Origin: Eledone cirrhosa
Lineage: Eukaryota
Reading direction: 5' to 3'
DNA length: 64,000 nucleotides
Assembly (NCBI GenBank): GCA_964016885.1
Contig: OZ024761.1
Span: forward strand, 20,398,001-20,462,000
The notes below the pieces were generated by a model. It was not told the origin of the DNA, searched no databases, and was given only the letters and a program-made list of their open reading frames with translations. The number at the start of each line of letters is the position of its first letter. Positions within the stretch are counted from its first letter, which is position 1. The translations under genes and the position numbers were made by a program. Shown here piece after piece: positions 45,701 to 47,927 of this stretch.

Positions 45701-47927
45701 ATACATTTCTTATCTATACAGGTAGGTCTTTGAAAGGGGTATGTATCGAAATATATATATATATAGAGAGAGAGAGAGAGAGAGAAGGTAGACATGAGAA
45801 GATGTCAGAAGACTTGGTAGAACAGTTGTTATACTCACTGACAATGTAATTTTCTGGAGAATCACCAACATTTACGTATTCACTGTGTCTCACAATATTG
45901 CTGACAGATCTAGTCTGAGCTCCTGGGGTGGATCTCTTGTTGGAACCAAGGGATATTTCAACCCTTTCGATGTTTCCTTCCCTAAAACAAAACAGTGTAT
46001 ATATATATATATATATGTATATATATATATATATATATATATACAATGATATTAAATAAATGGAAACTATATTTTTGAAAACCATATTTATTTTATTATA
46101 TATATTTCAAGGGTACCAAGACAACTTTGGTGCGCTTTCATCAGATAAAATACAAAGTTTGTTTTATAAATAGAGACATACCCATGAAAATCATACCTTA
46201 TCGGTTGGAAATTCACTGGATAGTTGTAAACATTTATGTTTGTCGGACTTCCAACAAATTAAATACCACTTCTACTTATATATATATATATATATATATA
46301 TATATATATATATATATGTGTGTTTCTGTGTATGTGTGTTTCTCTGTATGTGTGTATATATATATGTGTTTCTGTGTATGTGTGTTTCTCTGTATGTGTA
46401 TATATATATGTGTATATATATGTGTATATATGTGTGTATATATGTGTCTATATATATATGTATACGCATATATATATACACATACATATATATACACACA
46501 TATAAATATGCACACATATACACATATATATATACACACATATATGTGTATATATATGTGTGTGTATATATATGTGTGTGTATATATATATATATGTGTG
46601 TATGTGTGTGTATATATGTGTATATATGTGTGTATGTGTGTATATATGTGTATATATATACGTGTATATGTGTATATATATATATATGTGTGTATGTGTG
46701 TATATATATGAGAAGATATACGTACACACACACACACACATATATATATATAGAGAGAGAGAGTGAGTGAGAACATATACGTACACACAGTGTGCTGCTG
46801 TTAACACATGTGTTGAATCTATGAGAGTACCTCCGCATATACTATATCTGTTGCCATGGGGATGGGTAAAGACTCTCATGTAAACAATGGATGGAAATTC
46901 ACAGTCTTCTGCCGGAGACCCTTCAACAATCTGAGTATTGGGTGCTGAAATATAACAGAAATATATTAAATATATACATATATATATATATATATATATA
47001 TATATATATATATATATATATATATATATATATATACATATATATACATATATATACATACAGAAGAGCTGAAATACTTCATAAACAACAATCAAAGAGT
47101 GTTTAAGAACATTTAATCACTAACGTTCGTTTCATCCAAGCACAAGGTTGGAATCATCTGAGTATAAATCAAAAGTTAAAACAGATAAACTTGTCAAAGA
47201 ACATTCTGGGGATACCACATATGGGAAGAAGGCATAAATAATAGATATTAACATTGATATAAGAGAGGAAAGTAAGAAGCATATGAAAGCAGCTAGAAGC
47301 ATTAAAAAACTTATTAACAAGCTGGTATATATATATATATGTATATATATATATATATATATATATATATATATATATACATATATATATATATATATAT
47401 ATATTTCGTTTCTGAATATTGGCAACATGACCCTCCCAAAGTATAACAATATATATATATATATATATATATATATAACGAAGGAAATGTGGTAAGGAAC
47501 CAGGTGGACCATAACGCACCAAAGTACTCAATACTTGAGGTAGTAGAGTGGGTAATAGGAACCAGTAAGACCCCGACAGCTGAGCTCAAGCCGTTTCGAC
47601 GGCTAATTCTGGACTGAATTAGCCGTCGAAACGGCTTGAGCTCAGCTGTCGGGGTCTTACTGGTTCCTATATATATATATATATATATATATATATATAT
47701 ATATATATATATATATATATATATATATACATCTGTAGTTGTAATTTTTAGTGTCAATATCAAATCTATTCTATTTCACAATACTGTACAATTATTTCTA
47801 AGTCATGTCATGAAACTGATCATAAACTTATAATATGTTATTCTTTGTTTATCGATAAAAGACATCAACATCACCTACCAGCAAAAGCTGAAGCAATTGT
47901 AAGAAGAAGGCAACACAGAGACAACAT
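39749..47927 (-). CDS. Secreted chymotrypsin-like S1A serine protease paralogue B, intact, 260 aa (exons 47879-47927, 46785-46944, 45839-45981, 43758-43892, 42998-43143, 39749-39898)
   Basis: Exon lengths 49+160+143+135+146+150=783 nt, in frame. [25 protein letters not shown]...TAAHC...KNDMA...GGASTCQGDSGGP...[19 protein letters not shown]. Catalytic His/Asp/Ser intact; Ser189, Gly216, Asn226. Confidence 0.93.
40329..40666. repeat. Palindrome (about 160-170-bp arms, centre about 40493) carrying a hammerhead motif, intron 5 of paralogue B
   Basis: TTCCATTTAAAA-ATAC-TTTTAAATGGAA centre; arms read as reverse complements. Confidence 0.9.
40558..40624 (+). ncRNA. Type I hammerhead motif
   Basis: TATTTTGT-CTGATGA-AGG...CATATT-TTTT-AATATG...CCT-GAAA-TATATA-TA-ATGAAATA. 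Confidence 0.65.
40806..40863 (-). ncRNA. Type I hammerhead motif
   Basis: ATAC-CTGATGA-...CTGGATTCA-CAC-TGAACCCGG...-GAAA-TGATCA-TA-GTAT. Confidence 0.65.
40972..42428. repeat. About 1.45-kb (TA)n-G interrupted array
   Basis: TATATATAG units read directly. Confidence 0.95.
42729..42784 (+). ncRNA. Type I hammerhead motif
   Basis: ACTGC-CTGATGA-GGT...GCCATT-C-AATGGC...ATC-GAAA-TATATA-TA-GCAGT. Confidence 0.75.
44287..44813. repeat. Inverted repeat (44287-44449 vs 44584-44813) enclosing a long hairpin at 44520-44583
   Basis: The arms terminate at GAAATATATA, a hammerhead-like 3' half. Confidence 0.8.
45091..45133 (-). ncRNA. Minimal type I hammerhead in the 3' region of a Penelope-like element (copies 5695-5737 and 27529-27571)
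   Basis: GTCA-CTGAAGA-GGTCACA-GAATG-TGTGAC-GAAA-GATC-TT-TGAC, downstream of the GIY-YIG ORF. Confidence 0.8.
46089..46152 (-). ncRNA. Type I hammerhead motif
   Basis: TATTTTAT-CTGATGA-AAG...ACCAAAG-TTGT-CTTGGT...CTT-GAAA-TATATA-TA-ATAAAATA. Confidence 0.75.
47476..47670 (-). mobile_element. Short non-autonomous element ending in a perfect 55-bp-arm hairpin (47555-47670); other copies 25569-25765 and 60872-61066
   Basis: Shared tail GGTCCACCTGGTTCCTTAC(C/T)ACATTT; both ends lie in (TA)n. Confidence 0.8.

Follow-up and report, generated by a model that had tools for sequence, protein, structure and literature searches.

The hairpin at positions 47555–47670 of the window, a 64,000-nucleotide stretch of Eledone cirrhosa contig OZ024761.1, is probably a mini-insertion of a Penelope-like element (PLE) produced by two reverse transcriptions on opposite strands that ran off the 5' end of one RNA and whose products were joined end to end. 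Judged by sequence, such hairpins are 5'-truncated insertions of a Hydra-clade PLE with more than 36,000 copies lying in (TA)n. The wider proposition, held with less assurance and only slightly favoured, is that PLEs insert by two-ended TPRT, in which a dimer would prime both target strands at the tail ends on one RNA and the cDNAs would be joined head to head.

Hairpin copies in the window

In the numbering used for element positions, −1 is the final T of TTCCTAT and the tail spans +1 to +80. Three hairpins are present where the original prediction placed them (25569–25683, 47555–47670 and 60950–61066), with the arm motifs exactly as cited, arms that match within each copy and a tailless arm that always ends in TTCCTAT and runs directly into (AT)n. 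The further claim that all copies fold back at the same place holds roughly; in detail the tailed and tailless arms measure 61 and 55 nt in one copy versus 58 and 60 nt in another. Beyond the hairpin each copy carries a one-sided tail of 80 nt, giving an element of about 196 bp.

The focal insertion lies between (TA)n targets at 47449–47477 on the tail side and 47668–47729 on the tailless side. Its tail (minus strand, 47475–47554) has as its outer end the putative reverse-transcription (RT) start site 2 (…CGTTAT), and the tailed arm (minus strand, 47555–47615; −61 to −1) has its 5' end at 47615, the A at −61 that would be the capped RNA start. The tailless arm (plus strand, 47616–47670; −55 to −1) ends outwardly at the putative RT start site 1 (TTCCTAT). 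The arms are perfectly complementary over 55/55 positions around a 6 nt loop and are blunt-joined, with 0 overlap and 0 insertion; a seeming 5-nt microhomology here came from comparison with a different subfamily, which it matched by chance, the join being blunt against its own. Compared with a real tandem unit of the element, the tailed arm plus tail is 98.6% identical over 148 nt and the tailless arm 55/55 identical.

A hammerhead 3' half, recognized by sequence and folded as a complete motif in long copies, occupies 47617–47655 of the plus strand: the stem II 3' strand (47617–47627), GAAA (47628–47631), stem III up to 47649, a predicted cut between 47650 and 47651, and the stem I 3' strand (47651–47655). 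The other arm holds its mirror copy on the minus strand. The proposed hammerhead half (GAAA, stem III and GUC) was thus borne out at 47628–47650 and also in the 60950 copy, and is degenerate in the 25569 copy.

The second copy (CCTACTCG subfamily; minus strand, 60870–61066) consists of a tail (60870–60949), a tailed arm of 58 nt and a tailless arm of 60 nt (61007–61066), with 3 mismatches between the arms. The third and older copy (CCTGACTC subfamily; plus strand, 25569–25770) runs from tailless arm through tailed arm (ending at 25683) to tail; it is decayed and its arm ends are approximate, the outer 20 bp still pairing perfectly. A decayed tail-only fragment of the same family lies in (TA)n at 61654–61729 on the minus strand.

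Copy number and parent element

Copies were collected by exact sequence patterns in the 3.0-Gb genome assembly; the samples are the first matches on the largest contigs and hence non-random, and several tallies were made by hand. A 22-mer taken from the joint of arm and tail gives 36,447 exact matches versus 0 for the reversed control, and in contigs of an independent sequencing run the depth changes tenfold in one step at this fold point, so that the hairpin is neither chance nor an assembly artefact. The tail of the focal subfamily has 5,662 matches genome-wide. A 23-mer of the ribozyme 5' core has only 4,140, far fewer than the arm/tail 22-mer, which indicates that in most arms the truncation lies 3' of the core. 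Nearly all examined insertions are flanked by (TA)n, with one exception in (ATG)n (L329).

The structure is that of a PLE inverted pseudo-LTR (pLTR), as originally suggested. An inverted 5'-truncated copy adjoins the 5' end, with arms from 20 nt up to several kilobases. Of the first 30 loci, five run upstream into a 3' UTR; L007 and L014 reach an endonuclease end, and open frames of about 690–710 aa are found in long inverted pairs. Head-to-tail arrays with a period of 3,531–3,543 bp are also present; in one, the unit of 3,542 bp holds an intact 717-aa RT-endonuclease ORF with its ATG at +171. Past site 2 the sequence runs on into the 5' leader and body at 310 places; since the tail continues into the 5' leader in the full unit, both tail ends are internal sites. 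Both finish in TAT and could therefore pair with a (TA)n primer.

The 717-aa product is a single ORF with RT followed by a C-terminal GIY-YIG-type endonuclease (YRDD at 348, AYIGLT at 605), and 857 homologs have the same length. Searches of Pfam and of PDB sequences with the ORF gave no match, and the domain names rest on motifs. These include RWR at 37 (a conservative change from RWK), DKT at 117 (replacing DKG), a CxCX5C linker (CNCPDRSIC at 572), CxxC (CNLC at 670) and CxH (CKH at 698). The characters given for the Hydra clade are RW(R), DKT, the CxCX5C linker, CxxC and CxH (PMC8557442), and the protein motifs fit an assignment to this clade. The 3,542 bp unit exceeds the 'generally <3 kb' of that clade, a length given in PMC8557442 as a tendency and not as diagnostic. 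Two other placements were dropped: a Naiad-type ORF end in the HIWNYPL frame, which falls in the 1.2-kb 3' UTR, and the Neptune clade, as the motifs fit Hydra.

Predicted hammerhead ribozyme

The original prediction called for complete copies that keep the hammerhead 5' half, and these were found among the long copies, where it reads UUGAGAA or, in other subfamilies, CUGAGAA or UUGAAGA. In order, the long copies contain ACCCC, UUGAGAA, a long stem II closed by a loop of some 30 nt, GAAA, stem III, GUC and GGGGU, so that the elements of a type I hammerhead (core, GAAA and GUC within three helices) are all present. The MFE structure of the focal subfamily is a three-way junction, and across the copies compared for covariation 94% of cells are paired. 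Its UUGAGAA core is a U3-A8 variant, of a kind reported for PLEs (PMC4209133); in other subfamilies the corresponding positions are C3-A8 or U3-G8 mismatched. The extended stem I has start site 1 at its base, and the predicted cut falls between −21 and −20.

Rfam, applied to the window and one long copy, returned no hammerhead and only microsatellite-driven miRNA noise; the 121-nt motif folded no better than its shuffles (z −0.07 to −1.84); and among 15 very similar copies 0 pairs had changed on both sides. The mini-insertions have neither the TATA-like box described below nor the ribozyme 5' core and are for that reason predicted to be dead ends.

Arm ends and the putative RNA 5' end

Arm lengths were examined in 102 tail-anchored copies of the focal subfamily, comprising 68 simple hairpins and 34 solo, long or complex copies used only for the tailed-arm histogram. 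Tailed arms end at 55–65 in 55 of the 102, at 66–140 in 0 and beyond that in 13, lengths above 340 being lower bounds owing to an indel near −345 in the long-copy reference; tailless arms end at 55–65 in 53/68, with a mode of 61. Placed on the ribozyme map, the fold-back points do not gather in stem II as had been anticipated and form instead a sharp edge beyond it, at −61 with a minor edge at −65. The A at −61 is preceded, at a distance of 29 nt, by the first base of a TATA-like box, TATTTAAA. Sequence contexts at −61 (TTAGT/TCAGT) and −65 (TCATT) resemble initiator motifs; by eye, no clear DPE is seen at +28..+32.

Ends at −61 also tend to carry an extra untemplated G of the sense strand (10/13, compared with 15/48 other ends; Fisher p 0.004). 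At pure TA flanks an extra G outnumbers an extra C by 31 to 11 (counted by hand in the first 100 of 428; p 0.003), and the extra G is seen in several subfamilies. At 63 junction loci (hand tally from the first 100 of 2,788 rows), the base after the −61 arm is the cap-type C in 24, G in 10 and T in 2, with 8 single-base loci ambiguous, and 7/63 carry the cap-type base on both arms. Part of the C class is explained by C at −62 being native in two subfamilies, ends at −60 likewise show some excess of the extra G (12 versus 7), and many arms end at 55–60 rather than 61, so that some trimming is needed. An untemplated 5' G has been read as a copy of the cap in work on L1 (PMC9341517), and pLTRs of PLEs are described as holding promoters (PMC2377424, PMC3846280). 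The position −61, and to a minor extent −65, is thus likely to be a capped Pol II start inside hammerhead loop II; cap, start site and cleavage are all read from scars left in the DNA, the one RNA run holding a single small contig that lies outside the ribozyme.

A second, much smaller class of ends lies at the predicted cut. Both arms end exactly at −20 in 3/68 hairpins, and about 140 loci genome-wide have both arms near −20. By hand tally of the first 50 of these, 23 have both arms stopping exactly at −20 around an untemplated spacer, which is a lone A/T in 13 and shows no G bias, 20 are ambiguous, reading CCCCGGGG (either 20/20 blunt or a 2-nt CG overlap), and 7 run past −20. All of the 15 retrieved −20 loci (15/15) have one tailed and one tailless side. 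Arms piling up at −20 are likely to mark self-cleavage by the predicted ribozyme.

Ends at −20 make up a few percent of all ends and those at 55–65 more than half. Mixed pairs, in which one arm is ≥55 nt and the other ends at −20 or −21, number about 28/93 genome-wide by hand tally. They are thus fewer than the doubles, although independence would predict tens of times more, which indicates that the ends of the two arms are coupled. In addition, 11/102 tailed arms stop ≤9 nt from site 1, as would fit a second RT meeting the first cDNA on the same RNA; coupled ends and such stops together fit two RTs working on one RNA. Two templates do occur, in a few insertions with two subfamilies or two tails (L198, L019, L255 and L259).

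The alternative that best withstands these data keeps the two-primer insertion and dispenses with the cap: RT would stall at a distal loop II hairpin or a protein binding site and add an untemplated C, or two RNAs would be present per particle. A short hairpin does lie at −57 to −65 in the MFE fold, the ends are scattered over 55–65, insertions with two subfamilies exist, if rarely, and RTs are able to append untemplated bases where there is no cap, run-off additions being documented for R2 (PMC2718515). A pause should leak, however, yet 0/102 arms end at 66–140; the uncapped ends at −20 gain A/T and those at −61 gain G; the TATA-like box stands at the canonical distance; and 20/20 pairs outnumber mixed pairs. 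This alternative is consequently considered unlikely, and the capped end at −61 is retained as the preferred reading.

Two starts and the origin of the hairpin

Each side of an insertion appears to have its own start. Among close inverted pairs (first 100 of 10,595 matches, hand tally), 35/35 consist of one tailed and one tailless arm, one of them settled by additional sequence (p 6 × 10−11 against 50:50). Lone tailless arms occur between TA repeats, and a long multi-unit tandem array ends in a tailless arm (L264), so that TTCCTAT appears to be a priming site of its own.

The original prediction had derived the hairpin from a single tail-primed cDNA that would stop in stem II, act as its own primer and template, and then be captured by the (TA)n target through TAT microhomology. 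Such a fold-back would account for the identity of the arms and their coupled lengths, and self-priming is the explanation favoured for palindromes of Adineta PLEs (PMC3846280); a single private haplotype shared by both arms (L080) is also in its favour. The individual steps, however, are not supported here. The arms end past stem II, in loop II. The tailless arm, supposedly the copy, is longer than the tailed arm in 26/68 hairpins, by >5 nt in 14 of the 68; the tailed arm is the longer in another 26/68, and tailed arms go down to 2–6 nt of the arm region. Tailless arms that are kilobases long adjoin shorter tailed arms (L129, L137 and L140), and others have no partner at all. Capture by TAT microhomology fares no better, as the overlap at 43 insertion-free junctions (0 in 49%, 1 in 37%, 2 in 9%) follows the same distribution as simulated blunt joins (54, 35 and 9%), with means of 0.79 observed and 0.59 simulated. 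Finally, a self-priming loop would need more room than the spacers of 0–1 nt provide. Fold-back is therefore regarded as largely refuted and very improbable.

Inserted bases are found at 25/68 junctions, many of them copied from nearby. Locally templated insertions are a signature of end joining and, together with the existence of long inverted pairs, speak for a reading in which palindrome instability removed the central part of long inverted insertions at a later stage, leaving arms of about 60 bp. Palindromes of 294–745 bp with little or no spacer nevertheless persist (L125, L127 and L130), solo arms without a partner have the same −61 edge and extra G, and trimming cannot target a ribozyme cut site; later trimming is accordingly rated about as improbable as fold-back.

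That the hairpin is regenerated at each insertion, as originally proposed, is upheld by the 59 junction types among 68 simple hairpins of one subfamily and by the lack of fixed differences between left and right arms. Over the outer 38 nt, arms of the same copy differ by a mean of 2.3 bases versus 9.3–9.7 between copies (112 rows, among which a few misregistered or double-counted hairpins were kept, L198 appearing twice), in agreement with the comparison that had been called for. The arms of a copy belong to the same subfamily in 87 of these rows and to different ones in 4, with 21 unassigned (chance 0.50), and only 1 private haplotype is common to both arms (that of L080). The covariation of arms noted originally is thus real; it reflects mostly the source subfamily and is weak evidence when taken alone. 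Junction diversity is stronger evidence for hairpins made de novo than is the matching of arms. Amplification of an inherited hairpin from a MITE- or SINE-like master, which would suit the very high copy number, the near-uniform size and the few junction types that recur 2–3 times, is the least probable origin, given this junction diversity, the absence of fixed left/right differences, arms that follow the subfamilies of the autonomous element and a continuum up to multi-kilobase ORF-bearing arms.

Proposed insertion mechanism

In the preferred scheme of two reverse transcriptions on one RNA, the endonuclease would nick both strands of the (TA)n target, and the two target 3' ends would serve as primers, one at site 1 and one at site 2, which lies 80 nt downstream. 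Both cDNAs would extend to the RNA's 5' end, either capped (−61) or cut by the ribozyme (−20), each often gaining one to a few untemplated bases, and template jumping or end joining by the host, accompanied by a degree of trimming, would unite the cDNA 3' ends. Stubs with arms of ≤61 nt would arise where the 5' copy of pLTR and tail is used for priming, since the start lies only 61 nt upstream of site 1; the template of such a stub could be an mRNA 5' end or a short read-out of the 3' pLTR. Priming on the 3' copy would give long ORF-bearing arms, and ribozyme-cut RNA would give the 20/20 hairpins.

If this scheme is correct, one reaction would explain the inverted pseudo-LTRs, the one-sided tail and the length of both. 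The start site would be hidden in loop II, so that new transcripts could not cut themselves, and tens of thousands of stubs would record both the start site and PLE hammerhead cleavage in the living germ line. The family is young and very abundant, with intact ORFs, and lends itself to nucleotide-exact predictions: capped ends at −61/−65, 5'-OH ends at −20, one start per strand and one RNA per insertion. A single retrotransposon could in this way seed a genome with tens of thousands of perfect palindromes of 55–60 bp.

Comparison with known systems

The element adds one more member to an established clade, and its insertion architecture is likewise known (PMC8557442, PMC3846280). It resembles the endonuclease-bearing (EN+) Hydra-clade PLEs described in PMC8557442 in its single RT-EN ORF and motifs, its (TA)n targeting and its pLTR hammerhead. 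It differs from that description in its unit of 3.54 kb as opposed to generally <3 kb, in a U3-A8 core with a long loop II in place of the canonical core, and in that most copies are stubs of about 190 bp. With PLE insertion units as presented in PMC8557442, PMC3846280 and PMC2377424 it shares the head-to-head inverted copy, the one-sided tail, partial or full tandems and TATA/Inr-like signals in the pLTR; its tail is 80 nt, compared with 30–40 in those units. In the same three accounts, EN resolution is the explanation given for the tail and self-priming the one for the palindromes, whereas here the arm ends would be RNA 5' ends.

How inverted pLTRs and a one-sided tail arise is listed among the open questions in PMC8557442, and activity of PLE hammerheads in vivo is undocumented in PMC4209133 and was not seen in the reads examined in PMC11167929. 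The cap edge, the ends at the cut site and the coupling of ends were not found in the freely accessible literature searched. Among short derivatives, the stubs are comparable to the non-LTR retrozymes (10.64898/2026.07.22.740005), which are likewise short non-coding derivatives of PLE pLTRs related to the hammerhead; the retrozymes are presented there as tandem repeats with whole ribozymes, whereas the stubs are dispersed, inverted and devoid of the 5' core.

The proposed scheme has a counterpart in another retrotransposon. Twin priming of L1 also involves two target-primed cDNAs on one RNA and leads to an inversion, with cDNAs that start from a variable internal site and copy stretches of the RNA that do not overlap. 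In the present element both cDNAs would copy the same stretch from a fixed site, giving a duplication. The untemplated 5' G of L1 insertions (PMC9341517) is a further likeness, the extra G being read in both cases as a copy of the cap.

A biochemical parallel exists with Poseidon of Anolis, for which the work in PMC11167929 describes cleavage and extension of both strands in vitro, two internal starts that define the tail, and a predicted dimer. In that account the starts are not homologous to the target and do not differ between strands, and no reads ended at the ribozyme cut. In the Eledone element, by contrast, both putative starts follow a TAT that matches (TA)n, there is one start per side, and arms do end at the cut. 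By analogy, the in vitro behaviour of Poseidon would supply the chemistry for a two-primer mechanism of the kind proposed here.

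Tandem arrangements and variation of the parent element

Near-identical full-unit head-to-tail arrays of the parent element, the Hydra-clade Penelope-like element (PLE), are present at L261-L264 (G000:C1 91.47-91.49 Mb and 437.20-437.21 Mb, on a contig of the same genome's assembly), and one array retains an intact ORF. L262 additionally carries ∼48 tandem repeats of a 55 bp piece of the ORF, suggesting repeated slippage of the reverse transcriptase (RT) or rolling copying. Short partial tandems are found at L233-L235, L237, L247, L252, L253, L255 and L260. In these, the first piece extends from the pseudo-LTR to +142..+193, near the ATG at +171, and is fused to a second piece that starts at -58..-64 or at -20, the predicted hammerhead cut. 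This arrangement suggests that the partial tandems arose by template jumps onto short 5' mRNA fragments.

A recurrent arm end at -62/-61, bordering the inferred capped RNA start, reads G-C-GTCC in place of G-A-GTCC (L281, L179, L193 and L207, and at least eight ends in pure TA flanks). Either these ends derive from a source variant or the first transcribed base was misread. The segment that changes most rapidly across subfamilies is -15..-8, which separates stem I from start site 1 (TTCCTAT) and forms an internal loop within the extended stem. At L329, a 20/20 hairpin with both arms ending at -20, the tailless side lies within an (ATG)n repeat; thus, AT microhomology may be enough for priming at site 1.

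Other repeats and retroelement remnants in the window

A perfect palindrome with 129 bp arms (20473-20733) lies in (TA)n with an extra stretch on one side only, and both of its strands carry a CUGAGGA…GAAA hammerhead-like core; it is probably a hairpin stub of the same kind from a different PLE family. A second perfect palindrome (40371-40610; 118 bp arms), with a CUGAUGA…GAAA core on both strands and adjoining (TA)n, is of an unrelated family. Near-perfect palindromes occur at about 14300-14720 (∼200 bp arms, adjoining a (TA)n tract) and at 35715-35790, the latter a hairpin of 27 bp arms and a 22 nt spacer. A satellite of 23 bp period occupies 21728-24108 (103 copies, 93% identity).

A non-LTR element with AP-endonuclease and RT, presumably RTE-like, is present in several copies (25834-26509, 29538-35182 and 13441-14022), some in mutually inverted orientation, and one copy directly adjoins the TA tract of the older third hairpin at 25569. 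Decayed ORF pieces at 7476-9007 (+) and 9342-10099 (-) share 35-53% identity with the parent PLE protein and represent further Hydra-type PLE families. Two mutually similar ORF fragments (5942-7101 and 27776-28318, both on the minus strand) end in a GIY-YIG-like motif with a CxxxxCxxC linker upstream, and we take them to resemble another PLE clade.
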